Positions 1 through 12,715 of a DNA stretch of 12,715 nucleotides are shown here, piece by piece; position 1 is the first letter of the stretch; each line of letters begins with the position of its first letter. The translations under genes and the position numbers were made by a program. The stretch lies in the IMG/VR virus record IMGVR_UViG_2565956711_000001; one strand, 5' to 3'. This stretch comes from a virus. Lineage: Monodnaviria > Loebvirae > Hofneiviricota > Faserviricetes > Tubulavirales > Inoviridae. The notes under the pieces are model-generated. The model saw only the letters and a list, made by a program, of their open reading frames with translations, was not told the DNA's origin and did no database searches.

Positions 1-297
1 TCACCATTCCTCACGCCTTGCCGGTGAATCAAACTCCTTTTCTACAAAATTTGCAGGGTTTGTATAAGTTGAAAGCGGTGCAGAACTGAGCGAAATCTCC
101 ACCCCTAAAATATTTAACACTTTGTATAGACGCTCAAAACTTGCTTTTGAAGGATTTGACTCAAGGCGAGCATAAGTCTGCTGGGTTATACCCAACATGG
201 CAGATAATTCTCTTTGAGTTAATCCTTTTGATTTACGAAAACCAATTAGAAGTGGACGTAACTGGCTAAGAAGTCTAACGGGAAAAATAGTATCCAT
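1..297 (-). CDS. XRE-family HTH protein, HipB-like antitoxin (98 aa); cognate HipA-like kinase expected immediately beyond the left window edge
   Basis: Complete ORF with ATG at 295-297 and stop at 1-3. The HTH core GLTQRELSAMLGITQQTYARLESNPSKASFERLYKVLNILGVEISL aligns by eye with E. coli HipB (GWTQSELAKKIGIKQATISNFENNPDNTTLTTFFKILQSLELSMTL). The disordered tail ends in EW, as HipB does. No obvious SD. Confidence 0.7.
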   Translation of the reverse strand: MDTIFPVRLLSQLRPLLIGFRKSKGLTQRELSAMLGITQQTYARLESNPSKASFERLYKVLNILGVEISLSSAPLSTYTNPANFVEKEFDSPARREEW

Positions 298-348
298 AAG
301 TAGGTGGCCATGTCGATTACTTCATAATAAATTCACTCCTCGTAAGAA

Positions 349-391
349 ACAGCCTGTAAGGTGTCTTATTACTTTACAGCTTACAAGGTGT
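349..391. promoter_or_regulatory. Imperfect direct repeat pair upstream of the HipB-like gene (candidate operator)
   Basis: ACAGCCTGTAAGGTGT (349-364) and ACAGCTTACAAGGTGT (376-391) match at 13/16 positions, 27 bp apart. The second copy contains the small palindrome CTTAC-N5-GTAAG. They lie 50-95 bp upstream of the ATG at 297. Confidence 0.3.
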
Positions 392-413
392 AAGGGTGAA
401 CTCGTTGTATTAA

Positions 414-608
414 CTAATACTGCTCAAATTTTAAAGGTTGCATCTCGCGCTGGCTGGGATTATATTTATTAAGGACTAGCATATAGTGGTGTACGCTGTT
501 ATCCTCTTTGTAATGAGGCTTATCAGTGTGTGAAGGGAGAGGGCGGACTCTGCTTTGCCCTCTCTCTTTCATGGACTTATTTAACTTTAAATGTTTTTTA
601 AAAGTCAT
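414..608 (-). CDS. Hypothetical small basic protein (64 aa), possibly translationally coupled to the upstream gene
   Basis: Its ATG overlaps the stop of the 605-1165 ORF in an ATGA arrangement. The sequence is K/R/H-rich with no recognisable motif, and such an ORF could arise by chance in AT-rich DNA. Confidence 0.3.
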   Translation of the reverse strand: MTFKKHLKLNKSMKERGQSRVRPLPSHTDKPHYKEDNSVHHYMLVLNKYNPSQREMQPLKFEQY

Positions 609-1165
609 TGCCTTATTGCAATGGTTTTATTAAAAATCCCAATCAATGTGTTTATTTTTTCATTTATCTTAATTTGCTTTTTCTCTTGCTCGAGAGAAAG
701 TTTTCTGAATTCATTTTCCCTGCTCGGCACGGCAATTATCAACTCTTCATAAATCTCCTTTGCTCCTGATACTTTTTCCAACTCGCTGCTGTATTTTTCG
801 ATAAGAGTTCTTATTTGAATATTTACATTTCTGTATTCATGACTGGTAGCACTTAAAACAAGTTGACTGGAATTTTTTTTGGGTGCCTCAATTAACTCTA
901 CGCTTTTCTTTACGACATTGAATTCAGATGTGACTGAGTATACATATTGATACGCGCCTGATTTTCTGACTTTACTCAATAATCCTTTTCTAACTAAACA
1001 CTGAATTTGGTTATAAGCAAAAGCTTTTGCCTTAAAATAACTTTTCGGAAGTGAAAATCGCTCGATAAGAATTTGAGCCACATCGTTACTGGTGAAGTTA
1101 TCTTTAGCAATATAGATTATTGCGGAAAATATGTACGACTCAGCGTTGGATACTCGACTATTCAT
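605..1165 (-). CDS. Hypothetical protein (186 aa): predicted N-terminal winged-helix DNA-binding domain plus C-terminal coiled coil
   Basis: The ORF is clearly AT-rich by eye. NQIQCLVRKGLLSKVRKSGAYQYVYSVT resembles a recognition helix followed by a beta-hairpin wing. The C-terminal half is heptad-like and E/K-rich (EKYSSELEKVSGAKEIYEEL...LSLEQEKKQIKINEKINTL). I cannot name a family. Confidence 0.65.
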   Translation of the reverse strand: MNSRVSNAESYIFSAIIYIAKDNFTSNDVAQILIERFSLPKSYFKAKAFAYNQIQCLVRKGLLSKVRKSGAYQYVYSVTSEFNVVKKSVELIEAPKKNSSQLVLSATSHEYRNVNIQIRTLIEKYSSELEKVSGAKEIYEELIIAVPSRENEFRKLSLEQEKKQIKINEKINTLIGIFNKTIAIRQ

Positions 1166-1186
1166 ATGACTAAAACAAGGCAGTTA

Positions 1187-1237
1187 ACTTAGGATTGCTA
1201 AGTATACAACAATGGCAGATACTTAGACAATCTAAGC
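1187..1237. promoter_or_regulatory. Twin palindromic operator-like sites in the divergent intergenic region
   Basis: ACTTAG-gattg-CTAAGT at 1187-1203 is a perfect 6+5+6 palindrome. ACTTAG-acaat-CTAAGc at 1221-1237 repeats it. Centres are 34 bp apart, between the divergently transcribed 605-1165 (-) and 1263-1595 (+) genes. Confidence 0.45.
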
Positions 1238-1262
1238 ATTCGAGGCCAATGAAGATGAATCA

Positions 1263-1595
1263 GTGTCTGAAAAAAATCCGATACCAGAAAGACTTAAGGA
1301 AGCGAGAAGCAGGGCGGGTTTATCACAGCGCTCATTGGGCCTCCTTGTTGGGTTTGATCCCGCTTCGGCTAGCAGTCGTATGAATCATTATGAGAAAGGG
1401 CGCCATGTCCCCGATATTGATACGCTTCGACGGATGGCGGCAGAGTTAAACGTGCCGTTGAACTACTTTTTTTGTGATGATCAGACCACAGCTGAACTTG
1501 CATTACTCATATCCCGGATGACAGAGGAAGAGCGAAGTAATCTTATCGAAGCACTCAAAAGGCATCCAGGCGAAAAGCATGCTGACAAAAAATGA
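1263..1595 (+). CDS. XRE-family helix-turn-helix transcriptional regulator (110 aa)
   Basis: GTG start at 1263. An in-frame stop at 1233-1235 excludes upstream starts, and later ATGs would truncate the HTH. The motif RLKEARSRAGLSQRSLGLLVGFDPASASSRMNHYEKGRHVPDIDTLRRMAAELNVPLNYFF is a typical Cro/C1-type HTH. This is the only convincing plus-strand gene in the window. Confidence 0.8.
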   Translation: MSEKNPIPERLKEARSRAGLSQRSLGLLVGFDPASASSRMNHYEKGRHVPDIDTLRRMAAELNVPLNYFFCDDQTTAELALLISRMTEEERSNLIEALKRHPGEKHADKK

Positions 1596-1780: not shown

Positions 1781-1799
1781 TAAATCTTCCATGTCAGAA

Positions 1800-2237
1800 T
1801 TATGACGACTTATGTAGTTCCCGAATCATATGGTTGGCCAACAGGCTTTCCACCGGTATAACCGAATTGATTTTTACCGCTTTGACAATTTCTATCAACG
1901 AAAGGGTATTTTGCGCTAATTGGTCTCGCAATTCACTTACTTCAGCCTGCAACTGCTGGTTTCTGGCCAGTAAAGCCTGACGGGTTTTGCGGTTGACGTA
2001 TTGCTGTTTTTCTTTTGGGCGTAGATTCAATGGGCCAAGTTGCTGGTCAACATAGGCAGCAATTAGGCGTTTACGCTCTAGGCTGCTCAGCGTACTTAAA
2101 CCACCGTTAACGATACCTTTTGCCTTGAGCCTAATATGCAGGGCCTTGGCGGAAATAGGGGACTTGTCAAAGCCTTCAACCAGCATCAGTTGTAATTCGT
2201 GCTCAATCAGTGTGTTCAGTTCCTTGCCGCGCATCAA
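1800..2237 (-). CDS. Small coiled-coil accessory protein, GinD-like (145 aa), fourth gene of the recombinase operon
   Basis: The track start is TTG at 2235-2237. An ATG at 2232-2234 shares one base with the ginC-like TGA stop (TGATG), and GGAG lies 8 nt upstream of it. The C-terminal half is coiled-coil-like (RKTRQALLARNQQLQAEVSELRDQLAQNTLSLIEIV). Position and size match the small fourth gene of GInt gin operons. Confidence 0.75.
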   Translation of the reverse strand: MMRGKELNTLIEHELQLMLVEGFDKSPISAKALHIRLKAKGIVNGGLSTLSSLERKRLIAAYVDQQLGPLNLRPKEKQQYVNRKTRQALLARNQQLQAEVSELRDQLAQNTLSLIEIVKAVKINSVIPVESLLANHMIRELHKSS

Positions 2238-4600
2238 TCATTCTCCTGCATCAATTGTTGGTATTCAAGTGCAAAAAGCTGGGCCAGTGTACGGACTTTG
2301 CCCTCGGTGATTACTCCACCAGACAACACACTCTCAGCAGCAACCAGTTGTTGAGTCTTGGCACGACGATGCCATTGTGCTTGTATTGCCTCGAGTTGCT
2401 GTAACCGTCGTTCGATGTCGGCCAGTCTGGTCTGGTAATCAGGCTGATGTTGAGTAAGTTGGGTCAACTTCGAATGTGCTTGCTGTAAAGCCTGTTTTTT
2501 GGCAATCAGATTTGGTAGCTCATCTATCCGGCCTGTCAGCGTGAAATGTTCACAAAAGGCAGCACTCTGGCATTTCAGTCGATAAGGACATCCCCAGAGG
2601 TTAACTTCCCGCATACAGGAGCCAAATTTCAGCGGATACAGCACGGCATGTCTTGCCACCATGTCAGAGGCTTGCTCTGGTCCTTCTGCGTCGCGGATTT
2701 CTTCAAAGGCGGCAGCAACATCTTCAAAGAGGCCGTTAGCAAATGACGCCTCGACAAACCTGGCTACATCATCCCGATCGTCAAAAGTATGCAGGTTGGC
2801 TTTGATGGTATTGTCCAAAGTCATGTGTTCCGTGACCGCCAGTTGGCCGGTCCGTTTGACGATATCCAGTGGCGTAGCAATGGAGGACGAAGAGGGCGAG
2901 ACAGTTAGTGCTGTCGAAATCGGCTGCAAGGGCACCAACGAGGCGGCTTTTCGCCGTTCTGCAAGCGCCAGATGTTGATAATGCTGATTCTGCGTGATGT
3001 CCACTCGACCCATCAACATTGCCTGTAAGTGGTCAGAGATATCCGCAATAGCAAGAAAGGTATTGATGTTGTGCCGGGGAATGTGGGTACGCATCCGCGT
3101 CGAGGTGCCATCCTCCTCCAGTAATTGATATTTGCTGAATACTGATCCATCAGGCTCAACGTTGCCTAAGAATTTATTCATAAGTGTGTTAGTGAAGGGT
3201 ATCGGTGTAGCCAGCAAAGCCAGTGTGCGCTTTAATGCCAGCGAACCCTTCTCGTGTAGAAATAGCAGATCCTCGTAGTTAACTTGGTAGCGTTTGCCAT
3301 TTTCCATCCAGGCGTGTGTACAGGGTTCGTTGGCATTCGCCAGACCAAATTCGGTCTTAATGTAATGATTGAGAGCAGTCTTGGAATAATAGATAGATTT
3401 GCTGTTTTTCGGGCCTGGTATTTCTTGAACGGGCAGCACACCTCTTTTGCTAAGGGCTTTGGATGTTTTGTCCCGTTGTCCTGCCCGGCCCCGAAAACTT
3501 GAGGTAGTTTGGGTGATGTACTTCACCACATCGTCCAGTTCGACTCGTTCACCGGGCATGTTGCTGATGGCCTGTGGCAGGTAATCAGCAAAAGATTTTG
3601 CCCGTAGATAGGTAAGATGGCTGCGTATTGGTGCGGTCAACATTTTAACGGTACTGAATATACTCTCGACCAGCGGTACTGCCAGCGGTTCTACCCAATG
3701 CGTTCGCTCCCCAGCACCTTTGACACCAACATAACGGATACCAAGAAAATAATCGGGTAATCCCTTGTCCTGAAATCGTTTGCAGATTGCCGGATCATCA
3801 ATCTGGCGTTTAAACAGGGCATCCTGTCTGAGATTAAACGCTTCAATGGAGCGAAAGCCGGTAATAACCAATAACAACAGGCAATTTAACGCGATTTTCT
3901 CAGCATCACTTTCCACCCGCTGGATTAATGCAACTATGTTCAGAAATCCGCGAATGGTAATCAACGCATCTTCACCATCGGTAGTGGTATCAGACAGCTT
4001 GGCCTGCTGTTTCAGCGCCATGGTTTCCCGGGCTTTGCGGGTCAAGTTGGTTTTGTTGGTATACTTCACATCAGAGTTGTATTGCAGTTTAACCAACGTA
4101 AATGTGAAGTGATTGACCAATTTTTGAAGGCTAACGCACCGCCCTTTATAGTTAGCTGTATTGGGGTCACTAGGAGATGAAACGCTACTGAGAAGATCCA
4201 TCGCTCGTTGAATGACAACTGTGCTCAGGTAAGATGGATGGGTCTGTCCTGTCTCATAAAGCATCGCATGGTACCATCGTTTCAGAATCATCAAAGTTGC
4301 CTTTGCCACCGCTGGCGACATACTCCTATTTCCCTGTCGGTAAACCACTACCAGCATAGCTTTCATGAACTGACTATATTCTTTGTCGATGGGCAGATGT
4401 TCTACAATACCTTTGAATCTGTTCATCTCATCAAAACGTAATGTATTTCTGCCGTTCCCTCGCAACCATCCACTTCCCTGGTTACCACTTACCCAGATAT
4501 GATCATTCCATGTTTGGGCAAAATCAGCAGACAGGTGCTGTTCGAACCATTTTTTTTGCTCTTCAATAAAAGCCTGAAAATGCTCAAAGTGATTTTTCAT
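2234..4600 (-). CDS. Large tyrosine recombinase/integrase, GinC-like (788 aa)
   Basis: ATG at 4598-4600 with AGGTGA 7 nt upstream; it overlaps the upstream gene by 17 nt. Catalytic signature: TGFRSIEAFNL (Arg-I), HIPRHNINTF (H-x-x-R-H), LMGRVDITQNQHYQHL (Tyr nucleophile). The C-terminus carries a 4-Cys cluster followed by a Q-rich coiled coil. Confidence 0.9.
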   Translation of the reverse strand: MKNHFEHFQAFIEEQKKWFEQHLSADFAQTWNDHIWVSGNQGSGWLRGNGRNTLRFDEMNRFKGIVEHLPIDKEYSQFMKAMLVVVYRQGNRSMSPAVAKATLMILKRWYHAMLYETGQTHPSYLSTVVIQRAMDLLSSVSSPSDPNTANYKGRCVSLQKLVNHFTFTLVKLQYNSDVKYTNKTNLTRKARETMALKQQAKLSDTTTDGEDALITIRGFLNIVALIQRVESDAEKIALNCLLLLVITGFRSIEAFNLRQDALFKRQIDDPAICKRFQDKGLPDYFLGIRYVGVKGAGERTHWVEPLAVPLVESIFSTVKMLTAPIRSHLTYLRAKSFADYLPQAISNMPGERVELDDVVKYITQTTSSFRGRAGQRDKTSKALSKRGVLPVQEIPGPKNSKSIYYSKTALNHYIKTEFGLANANEPCTHAWMENGKRYQVNYEDLLFLHEKGSLALKRTLALLATPIPFTNTLMNKFLGNVEPDGSVFSKYQLLEEDGTSTRMRTHIPRHNINTFLAIADISDHLQAMLMGRVDITQNQHYQHLALAERRKAASLVPLQPISTALTVSPSSSSIATPLDIVKRTGQLAVTEHMTLDNTIKANLHTFDDRDDVARFVEASFANGLFEDVAAAFEEIRDAEGPEQASDMVARHAVLYPLKFGSCMREVNLWGCPYRLKCQSAAFCEHFTLTGRIDELPNLIAKKQALQQAHSKLTQLTQHQPDYQTRLADIERRLQQLEAIQAQWHRRAKTQQLVAAESVLSGGVITEGKVRTLAQLFALEYQQLMQEND

Positions 4601-6149
4601 TGGACTTCACCTGTTCCTGATGAAAACGGCAGCGGGCGATAACAGACTCAATTTCAAACTGTGTGGTTTCATGGATTAAAATGAGCGGATTTCGGGAATT
4701 ACCTACACCGTCTGAAATAGCGATTAGTTCATCGACTTCTTTTTTGACGCATTCAAGTAGAGCCTGATGTTCACCATCCGTAAAAGGGCGATAATACAGA
4801 CAGCCGTAACAAGAACGCACTTCGCTGAAAGGGCATGTACTACTGTTCCTGGAGCAACCACCAATTTTATCATGCAACTCGTCACCAACGAGTCCCACCA
4901 CTGGATGGCCTTTCCAATGTGCTGAGTCGACCAGTTCCCCAGTGAGCATCATAGCCACCATATTTTGCCAAACGGGATTCGACCCAAGCGCTTTAGCACG
5001 GATCAAGGCCAACGCGGGAGTTGCCATAATGTAGTATTTAGCTACGGCAAGAGAGGTGTGCCCCAGTACATGTGCTATCTCTTCAGCGCTAGCACCTTGC
5101 ATCGCCAAAGAGTGCCCAACATTGTGGCGTAAATCAGTGGGTGTAATTGTGGGCAATGCAGCTTCGCCACATGCTACGGCGGCTTGATATTCAGGAGGAC
5201 AGAAATTTAGGATTGCCTGATTAATTGCCTGAGACACATAATGCGGAGCTGAAACGCTGAAATCGAATAGTTTATCTTCGGGGTTTTTCTTATATCTCAC
5301 GGTATAGTTCATAATTAACTCCCCAATTTCTGGGGGGATCGCCAGAAATAACCGCTCTGTCGTCACTCGTCTTTGTTTAGCATATGGTAAAAAAACACTG
5401 TATCGAATCAGACCAGATTCCTGATTTCGTGTATCGATACGAACATCTTTGACCGCCAGCCTAGCGAGTTGTACTGGGCGTGCACCCGTTACATAAGCCA
5501 ACCCAAGGATAGCTGCATTGCGCACTTCGCTGTGACTGAAACTTTTGCCATCGCGTAACAACGAAGCCATTTCAAACAGTCCATTGCAAATCATGTTTTT
5601 TTCAAGAGGGTCAAGAATATTATCGATTTCTTGGTAACCCCCCCAATGTTCGAGATACGGTCGAGGGACGAACTCAAGATCATCGTAATCTTCAAGATTG
5701 AAACCTGGGAATGTTTCAGCACAAAGTATTTTTAATCCGAATAACACGGAATAAAAAGTAGCATTATCAATATCCTCTTTTTCGATAAATAATCGGAGCG
5801 TACTAAGCGAAAACCCACCATGTTCTCGACAATATGAAATGATATTCCTCCAATCAAGGTGCAACGCTGGAAGTTTGGTTGGAAATCTCGTCGATGCATA
5901 TTTGAAACAGATATACTTGTTTAATTTATTTGAGATATAATCTTGATTGAAAACAAGATATCGCCGACTGCCTGAATAATCGAAAGTCCATTTATTTCCT
6001 TTGTTAACAATATATTTATCATCAAACTCCATTGCCGTTTTTAGATAAATTCGATCAGGAATATCGAGTTCAAAGATAGCCTTAGCTAAATCAGGAGGGT
6101 AAACTGAGTTCCCTTCGTCAGATTTTAATGCATTATCAAATGATGTCAT
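4584..6149 (-). CDS. Tyrosine recombinase/integrase, GinB-like (521 aa)
   Basis: ATG at 6147-6149 overlaps the upstream gene by 14 nt. Catalytic signature: TGARPVQLARL (Arg-I), DLRHNVGHSL (R-H box), LGHTSLAVAKYY (His-II and Tyr). A C-terminal 4-Cys cluster is present. Confidence 0.9.
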   Translation of the reverse strand: MTSFDNALKSDEGNSVYPPDLAKAIFELDIPDRIYLKTAMEFDDKYIVNKGNKWTFDYSGSRRYLVFNQDYISNKLNKYICFKYASTRFPTKLPALHLDWRNIISYCREHGGFSLSTLRLFIEKEDIDNATFYSVLFGLKILCAETFPGFNLEDYDDLEFVPRPYLEHWGGYQEIDNILDPLEKNMICNGLFEMASLLRDGKSFSHSEVRNAAILGLAYVTGARPVQLARLAVKDVRIDTRNQESGLIRYSVFLPYAKQRRVTTERLFLAIPPEIGELIMNYTVRYKKNPEDKLFDFSVSAPHYVSQAINQAILNFCPPEYQAAVACGEAALPTITPTDLRHNVGHSLAMQGASAEEIAHVLGHTSLAVAKYYIMATPALALIRAKALGSNPVWQNMVAMMLTGELVDSAHWKGHPVVGLVGDELHDKIGGCSRNSSTCPFSEVRSCYGCLYYRPFTDGEHQALLECVKKEVDELIAISDGVGNSRNPLILIHETTQFEIESVIARCRFHQEQVKSNEKSL

Positions 6150-7530
6150 CGTTATATCTATCCATTATAGTATCTAACGTATTATGTAGCGCTGCATTGT
6201 CTTGAATAATTCGTTGGACATTGGCAGCATTAGCCTGCTCAGACAGGAAACGTTTTGCATATAGATCAGGCATTTGACTTGTCGGACTCCATCCCCCCAT
6301 CAGTCGTAGTTCATCTTTAGCTTCTTCCATTATCCCTGAGAGGGAAGGGACTTCAGCAATAAAGTGTGTTTTATTTTGCTGGCTTTTCAAATATTTTAAA
6401 TGCCATATTTTTTGCAATGTCAAAAAGGCCCAAGTATGTCGGGTTGTATGCGGAGTCAATCGTTGCAACGAGTCAGAGTACAACGGTGATTTGTACTCTG
6501 GATATTGGTTAGTGAAGACCTGATCTATTTTCGAAAAAATAGAATGAACTGATGTGTAGGACAAAGGCTTCGCTGACTGTTGACTCGATGTAAAGATGAA
6601 ATCGTGTTTATCAGTTTTTGGTCGAAGCTTTGCTATATAAATGCTTAAAAAAATATAATCCTGCTTATCGAGCTCCAACACACGATTAGCCCATGCATTT
6701 TTGAGAGATGGCGCATTCTTTCTTGGTTCGTATGCCTCGTCGACAGTTGTCACAATCAAACTAAACTTATCACCTTTTAAATTAGGTTTAATTGAGCTGC
6801 ACTCTAACAACAATAGCTCACCTGTTCGTAAACCATAATTTAACAACAGACGAATAATCAAAAAATTGCGGAACTGAAGATGCCCGGAAGGGAAAGGATT
6901 TAGCGGGTTATGCTTTTGGGCAGAAGAGGGGGTTATTATTCCATACAGGCTGAGCACCATTGCCCCAGACAAACTCTGAAATCCTTGGCTGCTGTGACTA
7001 TGTTGCGAAAATTTGTTTGATGTAAGCGTTCGATAATTCTCCCGGCAAAGCTGTAAACGGGTGTGTAAACGCGAAGCCAAAAGTGATAATGCTTTGGGAG
7101 AGTCATCCCGGTATGCAGGTGATATGTAGGTGTTAATCAAAAAAGAAATGAAATGGATCACAGCACGAACTCTAACTGTATGAGTTAAGCTATTGGCTTT
7201 TGTGACTCTCGTTAAAGACAACACATTTGACTGGACGTTGTGGCCATTTTCTAGATACATCCAAAATGCGGGCATTTCACCGACAGCAATGTCTGGATTG
7301 TGGTCAGATGAATAGAAGCTGTAGCAAAACGAGACACCATACTTTTGCCTCCAGAATTCGTAAAAAAACTTCACAGATTGAAGTGAAGCTGACTGTGTGG
7401 ACAATGAGCGGAAAGCCAAATGGTCAATATGGTACCTAAGGGGATACAGCAACGGCAGAGAGGTTTCCAAGTCCATCAGGATCCATCGCCTTTTACGGCC
7501 TGAGATAACCAACTGCTTTAGTGAATACAC
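6136..7530 (-). CDS. Tyrosine recombinase/integrase, GinA-like (464 aa), first gene of the operon
   Basis: GTG start at 7528-7530 with GAGG 8 nt upstream; an alternative ATG lies at 7474-7476. Catalytic signature: YGLRTGELLLL (Arg-I), HTTRHTWAFL (H-x-x-R-H), GGWSPTSQMPDLYAKR (Trp in the His-II position, then Tyr). Confidence 0.9.
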   Translation of the reverse strand: MYSLKQLVISGRKRRWILMDLETSLPLLYPLRYHIDHLAFRSLSTQSASLQSVKFFYEFWRQKYGVSFCYSFYSSDHNPDIAVGEMPAFWMYLENGHNVQSNVLSLTRVTKANSLTHTVRVRAVIHFISFLINTYISPAYRDDSPKALSLLASRLHTRLQLCRENYRTLTSNKFSQHSHSSQGFQSLSGAMVLSLYGIITPSSAQKHNPLNPFPSGHLQFRNFLIIRLLLNYGLRTGELLLLECSSIKPNLKGDKFSLIVTTVDEAYEPRKNAPSLKNAWANRVLELDKQDYIFLSIYIAKLRPKTDKHDFIFTSSQQSAKPLSYTSVHSIFSKIDQVFTNQYPEYKSPLYSDSLQRLTPHTTRHTWAFLTLQKIWHLKYLKSQQNKTHFIAEVPSLSGIMEEAKDELRLMGGWSPTSQMPDLYAKRFLSEQANAANVQRIIQDNAALHNTLDTIMDRYNDDII

Positions 7531-7673
7531 AATATTTACCTCAAAATTATCATGGATATGAAGAGAATGTACTCTGTACCTAATGCAAGAAACGAGAGGG
7601 AGATCAGAAATCCTAACGTATTGATTTATCAGTTAGTGGGAGTGTCATATGAACTTATTTACCACAGTAGGTG

Positions 7674-7701
7674 ATTTAACATAATATACATTATGCGCAC
7701 C
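7674..7701 (-). other. dif: dif, the chromosome dimer resolution site for XerC/XerD
   Basis: The plus strand reads ATTTAACATAATATACATTATGCGCACC. Its reverse complement is GGTGCGCATAA-TGTATA-TTATGTTAAAT, a 28/28 match to the canonical E. coli dif. The XerD arm faces left (island side) and the XerC arm faces right (prophage side). Confidence 0.95.
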
Positions 7702-7851
7702 AGTGCGCAGATACGCCAGAAATCAGCCTGTAACCATCACCACGGCATTAAACGGTCATCGCTGTTACGTTCTTTCGTCTTCGACCGTCAGCCATCCGTA
7801 TCGCTTCTGAATACGCCGGAATGAAAAACAGGCTTTGCAGTGCCGGGAATT

Positions 7852-7871
7852 ATTATGGCTGACGCCATAAT
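7852..7871. repeat. Perfect 8-bp stem hairpin with TGAC loop
   Basis: ATTATGGC-TGAC-GCCATAAT; all 8 pairs were checked base by base. Confidence 0.8.
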
Positions 7872-7922
7872 GCTGTTTATGTCCTCGCTTCGCTGCGGGG
7901 CTTCCGGCGCTAAGCGCCTCCC

Positions 7923-7953
7923 ATGCCTGACGGCATAAAAACCGGATATGCCG
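7923..7953. repeat. Two overlapping, mutually exclusive hairpins
   Basis: ATGCC-TGAC-GGCAT (7923-7936) and CGGCATA-aaaaccgga-TATGCCG (7931-7953) share the GGCAT segment. The first is a compensated variant of the 7852-7871 hairpin, with the same TGAC loop. Confidence 0.7.
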
Positions 7954-7986
7954 CCACGTCACCGCATGATACGTCCGTCGCCACCA

Positions 7987-9249
7987 TCACCGCGCGCGCT
8001 CCTCGTGGGAACTCGGTGCGTGCGCGGCGCTGGCGCGCCTGACTTTTTTCGCCTGTAACACGACAAGAATATCCGTCTTGTTCTTCTCGTCAGATGAACT
8101 GGTGAGCCAGCCTTTTGGCAGAAAGCTGAACCCGGTATCGGCGTTTGTGACCTTCGATTCAGCCAGGCCACCCAGCAGAATAATATCCCCGTCAGCCGCT
8201 GATACCTCCGTATTCACCTCGCGCTTAATCAGCGTCGGGCTGTTATTCACGCCCGTATCCGTCTTCGCAAAGCTGGAAAGCTGCTGCTTAATCACAAGGT
8301 CAATATTGTCAGTCCGGATTTGCGGTTTCACGTCGAGGATAACGCCACTAGAGCGATATTCAATCGACTGGATCGGCCTGTTGTCGGCGTAGCTCACCTG
8401 ACCCAGCACCGGAACCTCGTTACCGACTGAAAACGTGGCAGATGCGCCATCCTTCACCCTGAGCCGCGGGGAACTGACGACATGAAAACGACTGTCCGTC
8501 CTGAAAAGCTCATACAGCGCATCAAGAGAGCCTGTATTCACCCGGATAAAGTTATCAAAACCGCCAGACGCGCCAATCTGTATATTCAGCTTGCCGGAAA
8601 GCAGCTTCGCCGCCAGTGCCAGCCCGGAACCGTTACGCTCACTGGTCTGAACCTCAAACACGTAAGCTGCGACAATCACTTCTTCAGAGGCAGTATCAAT
8701 CAGCGGTAAAAGCGTCTGCAACCGCTTAATCTCTGACTTCCGGCCATAATAAACCAGCACATCCCCGGTACGGTTCATAAAGTCCGATGCCGTACCCGCT
8801 ACGGCCGCTTCTGGCGATATCTGCCCGGACGGTAACGAGTTACGCTGACTGTTAAACTGCCCGGTAAACTGTCCGGCCAGAATGTCAGACAGATACGCCA
8901 CGGAACGGAAGCGAGGCCGATAAACAAAGGTCTCCTGCGGCGGCACATACACTTTCGGCGTGAACGGCGCCACGTAGTCAATGCCCTGTTTGTTATAAAT
9001 CGCAATGTTCATATTGCCGAGATAGCGCTTAATAAATGCCCGTTCATCGATATCCGGCGTGATACGGAACGTCACCACCTTATCGGATTTGGCAAGCTCC
9101 GGGTCAAGCATAAACGGCTTATCGAACACCTGAACGTAAATCATGTTCAGCGCCTGCGGCAGCGGAACAGCGTTGAGCTCCAGACTGACGCCCTTCGCCA
9201 TAACCAGCCCCGGAACCAGTAAAAAAAGTAAACCTGTTATCAGCTTCAT
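7987..9249 (-). CDS. Filamentous-phage pIV-like outer-membrane secretin (420 aa)
   Basis: Signal peptide MKLITGLLFLLVPGLVMA. The secretin C-domain motif GDIILLGGLAESKVTNADTGFSFLPKGW...TDILVVLQAKKV parallels f1 pIV (GQTLLLGGLTDYKNTSQDSGVPFLSKIP...LYVLVKATIV). The ATG overlaps the pI-like stop (ATGA). Confidence 0.9.
   Translation of the reverse strand: MKLITGLLFLLVPGLVMAKGVSLELNAVPLPQALNMIYVQVFDKPFMLDPELAKSDKVVTFRITPDIDERAFIKRYLGNMNIAIYNKQGIDYVAPFTPKVYVPPQETFVYRPRFRSVAYLSDILAGQFTGQFNSQRNSLPSGQISPEAAVAGTASDFMNRTGDVLVYYGRKSEIKRLQTLLPLIDTASEEVIVAAYVFEVQTSERNGSGLALAAKLLSGKLNIQIGASGGFDNFIRVNTGSLDALYELFRTDSRFHVVSSPRLRVKDGASATFSVGNEVPVLGQVSYADNRPIQSIEYRSSGVILDVKPQIRTDNIDLVIKQQLSSFAKTDTGVNNSPTLIKREVNTEVSAADGDIILLGGLAESKVTNADTGFSFLPKGWLTSSSDEKNKTDILVVLQAKKVRRASAAHAPSSHEERAR
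7990..8049 (+). terminator. GC-rich double hairpin ending in a T6 run (terminator-like on the plus strand), overlapping the last ~18 codons of the secretin gene
   Basis: CCGCGCGCGC (7990-7999) pairs with GCGTGCGCGG (8018-8027): 10 bp with one G-T. GGCGC-TGGC-GCGCC (8026-8039) follows, then TGACTTTTTT (8040-8049). The T-run follows the stems only on the plus strand, antisense to the phage genes. Confidence 0.4.
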
Positions 9250-10280
9250 CGTATCGCCCCTGAATAAACCGTCACCGTTTCGCCGTCGATTTCACCCGTC
9301 ATCATCATGCCGTCAAAGCTGAACTGCGAAGCCGGCTCTATACGCAATCTGCCTGACGTGTCTGCAACAACAACCCATGCCTGACCATCGCGTTTAAGCC
9401 GTCCGGCAAGTCGCCATTTGTCCGACACAACGGGCTTAGCTGGCGCGGCAGGTACAAAAGACGCTGAATTATTTGCGGCGGGTAAATCTTTAGTCTGCTG
9501 TTCAGGCTCTGAATTACCGTTTGACGTGAAAAACCAGAACAGATAAAAAATGGCAATTACCGCCAGAATCAGTAACCCGACAGCTTTAAACCACAACATT
9601 TTAGAACTGAAAATATTCTGACGTTTATCGGTGACAAGTTCCCTTCCCTGCCCGTTCTCATGGGATTTATATAGGGGGAATATCGCCTTGTCATATTTAT
9701 TCTGATAACTGTTCGTCAGATTCGACTTAAACAGTTTGATACCCGTAAATACGTCCACACGGTAGCGGTTATGCAGACCCAGCGCCACATGCTTACTCAT
9801 GCGATACGTTGTTTCCACCCGGTCTTTAATGAATCGCGGAAGGTTGGCAACAGACTGATTCATAACCACTAAATCACAGGTTACGCCCGTTTTTTCATCG
9901 GCAAAATGGCGATGTTCTGCAATGAAAGAGCGATGATTTGCAGGAATCCCTTTATCGTTCTCCCATATGCGCCATGCTTCATCAATACAGATTAAATCCC
10001 CCGGACGGCAGAACGTATCATCCGCAATGCCTGAATCCGTTTTGTAGGGAAAGAAATTATCGTTCTGAACGTCTTCATTCTGAACAAGTAAAATTTCACC
10101 AAGTGATTCCCTGTCTGCCTTTTTAATATCAACGCAGTAATCATAAATACTTTGCGTGGCAAGGCCGTAAATATTACTGACAATGCGACGCCCAGCGATA
10201 CAGGCGGGAATAATGACGCTTGCCACCACTTCGTAAGATTTACCGCTTCCGGGAATGCCCACATACGCAGAAATAGCCAT
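9246..10280 (-). CDS. Zot-like / pI-like phage assembly NTPase (344 aa)
   Basis: N-terminal Walker A GIPGSGKS, followed by DEAW (Walker-B-like). A single TM segment (LWFKAVGLLILAVIAIFYLFWFF) precedes a periplasmic C-terminal domain. Position between pVI-like and pIV-like genes is as in Ff and CTXphi. Confidence 0.9.
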   Translation of the reverse strand: MAISAYVGIPGSGKSYEVVASVIIPACIAGRRIVSNIYGLATQSIYDYCVDIKKADRESLGEILLVQNEDVQNDNFFPYKTDSGIADDTFCRPGDLICIDEAWRIWENDKGIPANHRSFIAEHRHFADEKTGVTCDLVVMNQSVANLPRFIKDRVETTYRMSKHVALGLHNRYRVDVFTGIKLFKSNLTNSYQNKYDKAIFPLYKSHENGQGRELVTDKRQNIFSSKMLWFKAVGLLILAVIAIFYLFWFFTSNGNSEPEQQTKDLPAANNSASFVPAAPAKPVVSDKWRLAGRLKRDGQAWVVVADTSGRLRIEPASQFSFDGMMMTGEIDGETVTVYSGAIR

Positions 10281-10283
10281 AAA

Positions 10284-10571
10284 TTAACCAATCAAAGGAA
10301 TGCGACGAATAATAAAGCGCGTTAACAATGCTGAAAACATCAGTTTAATCCCTTCCGTGACCATAAACAGATTCACGAAATACCATACGCTATCAGGTAG
10401 TGAGGAAAACAACCCGGCAATATCAACAGATTTTGGCAACAGTGACGCCAGAACCGGAACAAACGCCTGTACGACAAAGTACAGGCCAAAAAACAGAATA
10501 AATTTGACAACCACCGTTCGCAGCACAAAACCCAGCGCCACGTTAAAGGCTGAAACCAGAATACCAAACAT
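10284..10571 (-). CDS. pVI/Ace-like minor coat (virion cap) membrane protein (95 aa)
   Basis: Very hydrophobic. The C-terminus SALLTRFIIRRIPLIG resembles the CTXphi Ace tail (ALMTRFALRALNL). GGAGG lies 5 nt upstream of the ATG. The stop lies 3 nt before the pI-like ATG. Confidence 0.7.
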   Translation of the reverse strand: MFGILVSAFNVALGFVLRTVVVKFILFFGLYFVVQAFVPVLASLLPKSVDIAGLFSSLPDSVWYFVNLFMVTEGIKLMFSALLTRFIIRRIPLIG

Positions 10572-10581
10572 AACGCCTCCG

Positions 10582-12465
10582 TCACGCAGTCAGAATGATA
10601 CGCAGCGAAATAATGCCCCAGATAAGCAGGAATACCGCTTTCAGAAGTGGCCTGATTTTTTCCAGAAGCTCGCAGTGAGAATCAATGGAATATTTATTGT
10701 CCCAGAGTTCGAACGACCATACCGGACACTGAACATCCTTCGATGAAATACTCAGGTTTTTAATGTCCGGCATTAATTCTGTAATTGGCTTGAGAATTTC
10801 CTCACCTGTAGGCGGTTTTTCAAGTTCCGGCGATTTAATGCCGGGGTCTTCGCCTAAATCAACAGAAGTATCGGTATCTGTGCCTGTACCAGGGTGTACA
10901 CCTGTATCCGTTCCCGCACCGGGTCTGGCATTAACCCACGACTGAGGAACGACAACCGGACTATAAAGCAAGCCCTTATCAAGTTTTACGCCAACAGCAT
11001 TAGCCGCAGCCGTCAGTTCAGCCGCCGTAAAAGGTTTATCAAGCGGTATCCCCTGATATCCTTCCTGAACAACAGTCTGACCTGCAAGGCCATTAATAAG
11101 ATTAACCAGCGCAGCCGGGTTTAACTGTTCCTCCGGCTTGAAATCTATATTATCAATAACCTCGCCATTAATTACCTGAGGTAAATTTGATGTATCAAAT
11201 TCTGTATTAAAAAATATCTGGTCTTTAACATCCTGAACATCATTCGTCGTTTTATACACGGCCTTCTCAGGGTGGCAAATACTTTTCCACTGCGTTTTGG
11301 GATTATCAGCCGTACTGCCCGGCGCAGGTACTTTCTCGCTTTTACATAAATCCCATGAGTTTTCAAGCGTAACCGTTGTTGTTCCAACAGATAAAACCAC
11401 AGTTACAATCGATGAATATCCACCAAAATAAGGATTCGGCTTTTCATACTGAAAGTCTTTAACGGAAACCGAATAAACCTTAAAATTTCTTGGCATCCTG
11501 ATATGTAAGTTATTGTCGTCAGACGCCTCATGATAAGTCACATTGGAATGAGAATAACCATTAATCGACTTATAAAGCGCAATCATTACCGGATTATCAC
11601 TGACAAGTACAGCATCGCCCTTTGCATCCCTGATATCAGTCGAATAAGGATATTTAGTACCCTTAACTGACACACGATATACATCATTCGGTAATGGCTG
11701 GCTTATCGGCGGTGGTGCATCAATATTGTAATAGGTTGGCGCAATCTGAACAGGTTTAACCTGATGATTATAAGGGCTTATCGAGTCCTGAATATTCTTC
11801 GCAGAAAAGCCAGTAGCATCAGAGGGCAAATAAACAGCAACAGGGCTTTTAGGTGAAGGTGCAACAGAAGAAGTAACAGTAGCGCCATTGGACAAATTAA
11901 GTAAATAAGTTCCATCATCCTGTTTTATTCCACTTGTAATATATTCAACAGCTTTTGCGCCCTGCTTTAAAGCAAGGTCAGCAACGGAAATAACACCCGC
12001 AGCCTGCCCCAGCAATCCCCATGTTGTCTGTCCGGCAGCCATCATATTACTGCCAAAACTTGAAATACCCGTGGATATCGAATCGTCAATTGTATGCTTC
12101 GCAAGGCCATAAGCAGCCGCGAAAACTGACGTTCCGGTGCAAAGCTGAGGATTACCCACTTTCTCGCCACACATGCGGATTGAATCAAAAACGTCAGGAC
12201 GTTCGCGTATAACCTCCGCAGCGACAGCGATACCCGCGCCCATACCGAGAGAACTGGCACCCGTTGCGAATACACGCCCCGCAGATTGAGAAACAACCTG
12301 AGCTTCACGGGTTTCAACCATTTGCTGAATTACACGTCCAAATCCGTCTGCTGTTACTGCATCAGCATGTACACCGGATGAAACCAGTAAAGACAATATA
12401 GTAATACCTAACTTTCCAGACCCTGAATGACCGCCCAGGCGCATAAAAGCCCCCATAAAAAACAC
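10582..12465 (-). CDS. pIII-like adsorption / minor coat protein (up to 627 aa; the true start is probably the ATG at 12442-12444)
   Basis: Signal peptide MRLGGHSGSGKLGITILSLLVSSGVHA-DA from the third in-frame start. The linker is G/T/D-rich (GAGTDTGVHPGTGTDTDTSVDLGEDPG). The C-terminal domain KYSIDSHCELLEKIRPLLKAVFLLIWGIISLRIILTA parallels M13 pIII (YEFSIDCDKINLFRGVFAFLLYVATFMYVF). Position after the major coat gene and terminator matches Ff. Confidence 0.8.
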   Translation of the reverse strand: MFFMGAFMRLGGHSGSGKLGITILSLLVSSGVHADAVTADGFGRVIQQMVETREAQVVSQSAGRVFATGASSLGMGAGIAVAAEVIRERPDVFDSIRMCGEKVGNPQLCTGTSVFAAAYGLAKHTIDDSISTGISSFGSNMMAAGQTTWGLLGQAAGVISVADLALKQGAKAVEYITSGIKQDDGTYLLNLSNGATVTSSVAPSPKSPVAVYLPSDATGFSAKNIQDSISPYNHQVKPVQIAPTYYNIDAPPPISQPLPNDVYRVSVKGTKYPYSTDIRDAKGDAVLVSDNPVMIALYKSINGYSHSNVTYHEASDDNNLHIRMPRNFKVYSVSVKDFQYEKPNPYFGGYSSIVTVVLSVGTTTVTLENSWDLCKSEKVPAPGSTADNPKTQWKSICHPEKAVYKTTNDVQDVKDQIFFNTEFDTSNLPQVINGEVIDNIDFKPEEQLNPAALVNLINGLAGQTVVQEGYQGIPLDKPFTAAELTAAANAVGVKLDKGLLYSPVVVPQSWVNARPGAGTDTGVHPGTGTDTDTSVDLGEDPGIKSPELEKPPTGEEILKPITELMPDIKNLSISSKDVQCPVWSFELWDNKYSIDSHCELLEKIRPLLKAVFLLIWGIISLRIILTA

Positions 12466-12489
12466 ATAAAATCAAAAAGATATTGAGCC

Positions 12490-12518
12490 ATAAATATAAA
12501 GGGGCTGTTACGCCCCTT
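12490..12518 (-). terminator. Rho-independent terminator after the major coat protein gene
   Basis: The minus strand reads AAGGGGC-GTAACA-GCCCCTT followed by TATATTTAT: a 7-bp stem with a T-rich tail. It lies 12 nt downstream of the coat gene stop, analogous to the strong terminator after gene VIII in Ff phages. Confidence 0.75.
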
Positions 12519-12529
12519 ACCTTTATGAA

Positions 12530-12715
12530 TTAAGCGCCACGAACCATACGCAAAATCCAGCGGACACCCGCAGAACCTGCATACAGAACAATAAGAGAAC
12601 CCGCTACCGCCATAATTCCGGTCAGAACGGAACCGAAATTAACGCTGTTAGTCAGTGGCGTAAGGTCAATACCTTTACCACCAACAACATCACCTTCAGC
12701 AGCAAATACGGCAGG
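12530..12715 (-). CDS. pVIII-like major coat protein (C-terminal 61 codons plus stop; N-terminus beyond the window)
   Basis: My own translation of the minus strand gives ...PAVFA/AEGDVVGGKGIDLTPLTNSVNFGSVLTGIMAVAGSLIVLYAGSAGVRWILRMVRGA*. It has a signal-peptidase-like AxA site, an acidic mature N-terminus (AEGD, as in M13), a hydrophobic core and a basic C-terminus. The ORF track omits it because the ORF is open at the window edge. Confidence 0.8.
   Translation of the reverse strand, partial: PAVFAAEGDVVGGKGIDLTPLTNSVNFGSVLTGIMAVAGSLIVLYAGSAGVRWILRMVRGA

Follow-up and report, generated by a model that had tools for sequence, protein, structure and literature searches.

GInts (genomic islands with three integrases) and the related SEs (strand-biased circularizing integrative elements) move large islands among Proteobacteria. 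According to Bardaji et al., GInts have imperfect direct repeats of 10-11 nt (attL/attR) at their flanks, and their excision and circularization depend on ginABCD. The recombination genes of GInts form a ginABCD operon (Bardaji et al., 2017, PMC5385486; Idola et al., 2023, PMC10214605), and those of SEs a four-gene module with similar gene sizes, intA-tfp-intB-srap (PMC10214605, PMC9345347). Recombination reportedly requires every one of the four gin genes (PMC5385486). Coiled-coil C-termini have been reported for GinD and Srap (PMC10214605), and the SE protein Tfp is reported to lack the RHRY residues. Here we analyze a ginABCD-type operon in IMG/VR virus record IMGVR_UViG_2565956711_000001, a DNA of 12,715 nucleotides (nt) classified with the Inoviridae; we refer to this entire stretch as the window. 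A sequence-only reading of it had proposed that the second and third recombinases encoded here carry matching C-terminal four-cysteine clusters that are absent from the first, and that these might constitute a shared zinc-binding or disulfide module acting in hetero-oligomerization or DNA-arm binding.

A GInt-type operon in the window

The minus strand of the window contains four overlapping genes in the order A-B-C-D, which share with ginABCD their order, relative sizes and overlapping starts, and which likewise form the border of an island whose cargo differs between hosts. In BLASTP comparisons, proteins A, B and C of the window match their counterparts A, B and C in a plasmid-borne GInt-type operon of X. 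citri (E values of 1.7e-10, 2e-10 and 1.1e-9, respectively). Idola et al. (PMC10214605) include the GinD of this X. citri operon, WP_011051910.1, in their list of GInts. The same three window proteins also match ECs_3512, ECs_3511 and ECs_3510 of Escherichia coli O157 Sakai (E values of 1.5e-14, 7e-8 and 2e-8). Based on gene order, gene sizes and the matches of A, B and C to listed GInt proteins, the window carries the ginABCD-type recombination operon of a divergent GInt. Identity to the classical proteins is 20-32%, and GinC is longer than its classical counterparts (788 amino acids, aa, versus about 620-700). For the GinD-like protein, BLAST finds no similar classical GinD at a threshold of E < 0.1. 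Neither the accessions of the window proteins nor one host genome occur in the accessible portions of the supplementary SE and GInt lists of Idola et al.

Invariant four-cysteine clusters in GinB and GinC

The ginB-like gene (positions 4584-6149, minus strand; 521 aa) encodes a tyrosine recombinase whose match to Pfam family PF00589 extends over residues 203-376 (42 bits). An alignment of homologues shows no variation at R224, K258, R341, H342 and Y373 and very little at H364, and a Foldseek comparison of the AlphaFold2 model with the Protein Data Bank (PDB) returns XerA, Cre and XerH as the best matches (E about 3e-6). Outside this domain, and downstream of the invariant Y373, lies the cluster C432-x6-C439-x7-C447-x2-C450 (4800-4856, minus strand), which is followed by a C-terminal helical hairpin predicted by AlphaFold2 for residues 461-520 (4590-4769, minus strand) and beginning at an invariant histidine, H461. 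The ginC-like gene (2234-4600, minus strand), whose start overlaps ginB by 17 nt, encodes a large protein of predicted recombinase fold. Its cluster, C662-x8-C671-x5-C677-x5-C683 (2552-2617, minus strand), is located downstream of the invariant Y541 and precedes a predicted helical hairpin or coiled coil at residues 694-747 (2360-2521, minus strand) and a further helix at residues 772-787.

Translation of the open reading frames (ORFs) reproduces exactly the residue numbers, nucleotide positions and peptide strings that the sequence-only reading gave for both clusters. It likewise reproduces the Pro-Phe in GinB and the Pro-Tyr in GinC that follow the second cysteine, although among homologues this proline is common rather than invariant. 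The reading had miscounted three of the spacings, however, each error being of one residue, giving x7/x8/x2 for GinB and x8/x5/x6 for GinC. Its placement of the clusters after the catalytic tyrosine and ahead of a helical tail agrees with the alignments and with the long helices that AlphaFold2 predicts in both proteins. Its view that they fall outside the canonical recombinase fold is in accord with the end of the PF00589 match at GinB residue 376 and with the failure of any Pfam model to match either module in scans of the isolated modules. GinA, for which the absence of a cluster had been claimed, possesses three scattered cysteines in the window (residues 69, 162 and 244), and no column of an alignment of 40 sequences (0-8 cysteines each) reaches 75% cysteine.

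Conservation among GinB and GinC homologues had been suggested as a check, and it proves decisive. Among database homologues, all four cysteines are present in 70 of 71 full-length GinB proteins, the exception (P0102) being a chimeric ORF, and in 88 of 88 GinC proteins. A sample of 61 genome loci was fetched through GinC (28-100% identity by tblastn) from Enterobacterales, Acinetobacter, Psychrobacter, Moraxella, Aeromonas, Vibrio, Photobacterium, Providencia and Kangiella. The four cysteines are retained there in 45/45 complete GinB and 48/48 complete GinC sequences, at identities of 29-100%. Altogether, 115 of 116 GinB relatives and 136 of 136 GinC relatives keep the complete cluster, down to about 30% identity. 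Cysteines outside the clusters are poorly kept (GinB C188 and C317 in 3/71 sequences each, GinC C273 in 4/88), and in both proteins the module ranks within the top three 30-residue segments for conservation, on a par with box I. Composition alone is weak evidence for the GinB cluster, because in shuffled versions of this protein, which contains 12 cysteines, four cysteines fall within the observed span with P = 0.05; the corresponding value for GinC is P = 0.004. Conservation across more than 100 sequences per protein indicates that the four-cysteine clusters are genuine features maintained by strong purifying selection, and not the product of chance.

Occurrence in classical GInts and related operons

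Both clusters are also present in ten classical GInt-type plasmid operons from Gamma-, Beta- and Alphaproteobacteria (E. coli IncN, three from Pseudomonas, and one each from X. citri, P. multocida, S. stutzeri, Burkholderia, Azospirillum and Caballeronia). The classical pattern is G-x-C-x5-C-x6-8-C-x2-C-x2-F-x-P...H in GinB and C-x8-C-x5-C-x2/3-C, usually followed by x4-C, in GinC; window GinC differs in having C-x5-C rather than C-x2-C as its last pair and in being without the fifth cysteine. Profile comparison of window and classical modules by hhalign gives E values of 7e-19 for GinB and 2.8e-8 for GinC, scores that 0 of 60 shuffles reach in either case. As judged by these profiles, each window module is clearly homologous to its own classical GInt counterpart.

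An exhaustive hidden Markov model search of 1.84 billion protein representatives with the GinB-module profile returned 158 cluster representatives at E <= 1e-3. In full-length hits (about 430-650 aa) the module sits about 80 residues from the C-terminus, and 87 of 92 such hits contain C-x4-10-C-x5-9-C-x2-C, the other five being small variants. Genomic context was sampled for four distant hits, and in all four the protein is encoded by the middle gene of an A-B-C(-D) operon, with A proteins of 374-419 aa and C proteins of 566-780 aa. Three of the four C proteins contain G-x-C-x8-C-x5-C-x2/3-C, and the fourth is truncated at a contig end. The motif [IV]-G-x-C-x5-8-C-x6-8-C-Y-x-C-x2-F-x-P can serve as a signature for the middle gene of such operons. 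A word-index search with the GinC module retrieved GinC fragments only; one match carrying a CCG-domain label (P0307) proved to be a fusion artefact that matches the tail alone.

In an NCBIfam scan of the isolated modules, the only match was of the GinB module to NF041502 ('integrase_1'), with GinB residues 397-478 aligning to model positions 380-460 (E 3.9e-8). One of the distant B proteins described above is a true member of this family; true members such as P0395 (510 bits) are encoded by the middle gene of an A-B-C trio and have the spacing C-x5-C-x7-C-x2-C. The name of the model gives no indication of a metal site. Window GinB aligns to the model only through its C-terminal third, which includes the cysteine module. 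Because it scores 86.7 bits against a cut-off of 350, we place it by sequence in a sister clade of NF041502 and not in the family itself.

Relationship between the two modules

That the two clusters represent one shared module, as the sequence-only reading suggested, is not established by sequence comparison. Both modules occupy the same position and have the pattern G-x-C...C...C...C. Both also show the same predicted order of elements, namely a strand ending at the first cysteine, a loop with the second, a short helix with the third, then the fourth, a strand and long helices. Homology, on the other hand, receives little support, since hhalign comparison of the GinB and GinC module profiles gives E values of 0.02-0.15, and controls with shuffled columns score at least as high in 4/100, 4/60 and 19/60 trials. 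Yet the full-length GinB and GinC profiles also score only E 0.51, although their catalytic domains share a fold, and the method therefore has low power for detecting homology between these proteins. A common origin of the modules is plausible but unproven.

Alternatively, the two clusters might be unrelated, having been acquired independently and having no joint function, such that the match between them would be superficial. We regard this as rather unlikely. It would account for the nonsignificant module comparisons and the shuffled profiles that equal them, for the lack of proteins of GinC length among the hits of the exhaustive GinB-module search, and for the quite different spacings of the Tfp and IntB clusters in two SE elements. 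It fits less well with the identical topological position and similar predicted element order of the modules or with the closer resemblance of the classical forms (C-x5-C-x7-C-x2-C versus C-x8-C-x5-C-x2-C), and the insensitivity of the test blunts the argument from nonsignificance.

A further point against independent clusters comes from the E. coli O157 Sakai lineage, in which both modules are reduced together. The GInt of this lineage (ECs_3509-3512) is annotated inside 'prophage Sp17' and has an entry in the GInt list of Idola et al. Its GinB (437 aa) keeps only the CxxC, nine residues from the end, its GinC (543 aa) keeps only C-x8-C, and the helical tails of both proteins are short. The half-clusters that are left are complementary. 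We count the joint reduction of both modules and both tails in favor of the functional proposal set out below. The lineage is found in 351 of 5426 complete E. coli genomes and shows little diversity.

A putative metal site at the base of a helical tail

We propose, with slightly more belief than doubt, that the four invariant cysteines of GinB and of GinC form a structural Cys4 metal (Zn) knot that scaffolds the helical tail for assembly of the recombination complex. A cytoplasmic DNA enzyme in which four thiols are invariant over a stretch of only about 20 residues (19-22) suggests a metal site. A metal-binding Cys4 site would thus be the natural reading of these sequences, as the zinc-binding part of the earlier proposal had it, and Zn2+ would be the metal expected by default. 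A treble-clef-like site could accommodate the predicted order of strand, loop and helix, albeit at low local confidence in the model. Glycine, proline, aromatic residues and one histidine are conserved together with the cysteines, and there is no basic patch, a pattern that favors a structural or protein-contact role over base-specific reading of DNA.

In canonical tyrosine recombinases, the C-terminal segment docks on a neighboring subunit and sets which subunits are active. Helix N of Cre, the C-termini of XerC and XerD, and the tail of lambda Int provide cyclic subunit contacts and half-of-the-sites control in this manner. GinB and GinC may possess, after the catalytic domain and the post-tyrosine segment, an additional small domain held together by the four cysteines, which would coordinate one structural metal ion. 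The resulting knot would form the rigid base of the C-terminal helical hairpin or coiled coil, and knot and tail together would represent an elaborated version of the canonical docking device, whose function would be to assemble and order a GinA/GinB/GinC(/GinD) complex on the element ends. This proposal draws on the position of the modules at that of the docking segment, on the coiled coils reported for GinD and Srap, and on the reported requirement for all four genes. In the AlphaFold2 models, the tail helices comprise residues 461-482 and 488-520 of GinB (predicted local distance difference test, pLDDT, of 64-87 by block) and residues 694-716 and 720-747 of GinC. The only PDB sequences that resemble the GinC tail, and these weakly, are coiled-coil proteins.

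Several observations weigh against this proposal. Model confidence is low at the sites themselves, with pLDDT below 50 at GinB residues 443-449 and GinC residues 667-669 and of 50-66 in the surrounding 10-residue blocks. Neither module is a textbook zinc ribbon. A classical ribbon has two CxxC-type knuckles, and a treble clef one knuckle plus a helix N-terminus, with all four thiols directed at a single metal; GinB has one CxxC knuckle and classical GinC one, whereas GinC of the window clade has none. The argument from joint reduction rests on a single lineage, that of Sakai. Moreover, a DNA-binding role, as in the cysteine-rich domain of large serine integrases, could coexist with a role in assembly.

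Other explanations of the clusters have to be weighed against a structural metal knot. The cysteines might ligate an Fe-S cluster such as [4Fe-4S], which would make recombination sensitive to redox state or iron supply. The confinement of four invariant cysteines to 17-22 residues recalls the cluster loop of EndoIII and MutY, where C-x6-C-x2-C-x5-C lies at the C-terminus of a HhH glycosylase. A proline often follows the second cysteine, aromatic residues flank the site, and window-clade GinC has no CxxC zinc knuckle. The EndoIII/MutY loop itself was rejected as a match, as the spacings differ in both GinB and GinC and no such family was matched, a result that bears less on Fe-S binding as such. 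Nevertheless, the spacings fit no Fe-S motif that we could name, no Fe-S family was found in Pfam or NCBIfam scans, the hosts include the strict aerobes Acinetobacter and Psychrobacter, and Zn(Cys)4 sites are far commoner in the small appended domains of recombinases and transposases. An Fe-S cluster is consequently quite unlikely in our estimation. Intramolecular disulfides, the other half of the earlier suggestion, would have to form in cytoplasmic DNA enzymes, that is, in a reducing compartment. A merely compositional cluster, toward which the marginal P value for GinB might incline, would not stay invariant in more than 100 sequences of each protein down to about 30% identity. We give almost no credence to either.

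Zinc-bearing modules that read the flanking or arm sequences of the element ends, in place of a protein-protein assembly role, are a stronger contender, though still an unlikely one. Large serine recombinases have four conserved C-terminal cysteines, with zinc in phiC31 integrase, and this segment has been implicated in DNA binding by that enzyme (PMC3556126). GInts are site specific (PMC5385486) and would need more determinants of specificity than a simple core site offers. Basic residues near the clusters, R445 in GinB and R674 and R691 in GinC, are conserved in the window clade, but they are not conserved in classical GInt modules. The family-wide invariants are Gly, Cys, Pro, aromatic residues and His, and no DNA-binding family was matched in Pfam, NCBIfam or PDB searches. 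Finally, the clusters might be regulatory metal centers that gate assembly of the recombination complex, as opposed to inert structural zinc. Such centers could take the form of redox-active Fe-S clusters or of a clasp between GinB and GinC subunits that share ligands, the latter being hinted at by the complementary half-clusters of the Sakai proteins (CxxC in GinB, C-x8-C in GinC). We consider this improbable, but if true, it would tie the mobility of GInts and SEs, elements whose cargo includes defence islands and, among resistance genes, tmexCD-toprJ and blaGMA-1, to the metal or redox state of the cell.

Conserved residues of the GinC recombinase fold

GinC as a whole has no match in Pfam or NCBIfam, where neither it nor the GinD-like protein has a Pfam family above the gathering score, and it matches a PHROG integrase weakly. 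Its AlphaFold2 model is nonetheless closest in the PDB to Cre and XerH (weak Foldseek matches, E 1.5e-3, probability 1.0). R250, K294, H506, R509, R532 and Y541 are invariant in 44 of 44 aligned homologues. The motifs of the window protein are a box I-like arginine (TGFRSxE), a lysine, HxxRH and GR...Y, and most classical GinC proteins contain AP.R..E, H..RH..NT and GR......Y.H. Published statements describe GinC as being without the first arginine or the RHRY motif, with which the invariant residues observed here conflict. Based on these residues, GinC may have catalytic activity; in its AlphaFold2 model, residues 517-572, the stretch that contains Y541, have a confidence below 50.

Gene calls, element limits and neighboring DNA

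The ginA-like tyrosine recombinase gene (6136-7530, minus strand) is taken as the longest ORF, 464 aa from a GTG at 7530; in RefSeq, an identical gene is started at 7476 (446 aa). Its product passes the PF00589 cut-off of 27.1 bits with 30.4 bits, as GinB does, and the start of ginB overlaps it by 14 nt. The ginD-like gene (1800-2237, minus strand; 145 aa, zero cysteines) is assigned by position and size. It overlaps the ginC stop and is kept downstream of ginC in most related loci. Classical GinD proteins have a single cysteine at position 31 or 32 in 5 of 8 plasmid copies and in Sakai, and window GinD has none there.

The ginA-proximal end of the mobile element is placed at approximately 7700-7703, where similarity to the window stops in each of four independent copies (E. 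coli EC09, Enterobacter wuhouensis, E. chinensis and Escherichia whittamii). A core of 1791-7700 is common to the four hosts and the cargo beyond ginD varies, so that the gin operon forms one end of the island; the distal end lies beyond the window. A further E. coli plasmid copy (AP026448.1) is frameshifted and uninformative.

Just outside the ginA-side end, inovirus-type genes occupy window positions 7704-12715, all on the minus strand. This block includes a secretin gene (7987-9249), a Zot-like gene (9246-10280) and ORFs at 10284-10571 and 10582-12465. Other copies of the gin operon adjoin different DNA at this point, an ISNCY transposase gene in the case of E. coli EC09, which identifies the GInt island and the inovirus-like block as two distinct insertions lying side by side. 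On the ginD side, the cargo within the window (1-1595) starts with genes for two helix-turn-helix regulators, together with a 186-aa ORF. The E. coli EC09 copy (236-13896), which is identical, continues with an ATP-dependent nuclease and UvrD-type helicase pair, which we take to be Gabija-like, and with SEC-C domain, AlbA-domain and NACHT proteins. Judged from its annotated cargo, this GInt resembles a phage-defence island. The cargo of other GInt-type operons in the sample includes Avs4, restriction-modification systems, and genes for resistance to arsenic and metals.

Comparison with known recombination systems

The cysteine modules are apparently undescribed: they have no Pfam domain, module profiles find no relative among PDB sequences beyond chance or coiled-coil hits, Foldseek searches of the PDB with both models return Cre/Xer-type matches to the catalytic domains and none to the C-terminal modules, and the GInt and SE literature that we searched mentions neither cysteines nor modules. 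GinB and GinC each carry a strongly conserved accessory module that, within a known recombinase system, seems not to have been described before and whose metal, geometry and role are putative. The presence of a Cys4 module and helical tail in the second and third proteins, and never in the first, is a testable feature that predicts metal dependence and offers a concrete handle on how multi-recombinase elements assemble.

The classical GInts are the nearest described relatives, and their proteins carry both clusters. In SEs, the elements on pAQU1 and pBT2436 (n=2) likewise have C-terminal four-cysteine clusters in Tfp and IntB and none in IntA or Srap. The Tfp pattern, C-x19-28-C-x5-C-x2-C, resembles the C-x5-C-x2-C of GinC-type modules, although SE spacings differ from those of the window. 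Sequence similarity between SE and window proteins is negligible, the best match (E 1e-3) falling at box II. Membership of the window operon in the SEs was accordingly rejected, as BLAST similarity to the pAQU1 and pBT2436 proteins is negligible and GinB keeps R224, K258, R341, H364 and Y373.

Relative to the canonical tyrosine recombinases (R...K...HxxR...H/W...Y), GinA and GinB pass the PF00589 threshold, whereas GinC does not and is placed among them by its Cre/XerH-like predicted fold and its invariant R250, K294, H506, R509, R532 and Y541. The modules of GinB and GinC lie where canonical docking segments do, at the C-terminal end after the tyrosine-bearing helix. Those segments are metal-free and 10-30 residues long; in contrast, about 150 residues follow the tyrosine in GinB and about 250 in GinC, among them the four-cysteine cluster and the predicted helical hairpin.

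The large serine integrases (phiC31, A118/LI, Bxb1) are likewise site-specific recombinases with a C-terminal four-cysteine segment and long helices, an architecture reportedly made up of a zinc ribbon and a coiled coil. There the segment serves to bind att sites, to pair subunits and to control directionality. These enzymes belong to an unrelated catalytic superfamily (serine versus tyrosine) and share no sequence similarity with the Gin proteins, so that the likeness is an analogy of design only, and their helices are inserted into the cluster, whereas those of GinB and GinC come after it. With this qualification, the Cys4 zinc domain and coiled coil of the large serine integrases are the closest functional analogy to the modules described here, and the parallel suggests that tyrosine and large serine recombinases have converged on an accessory design consisting of a Cys4 domain plus a coiled coil.

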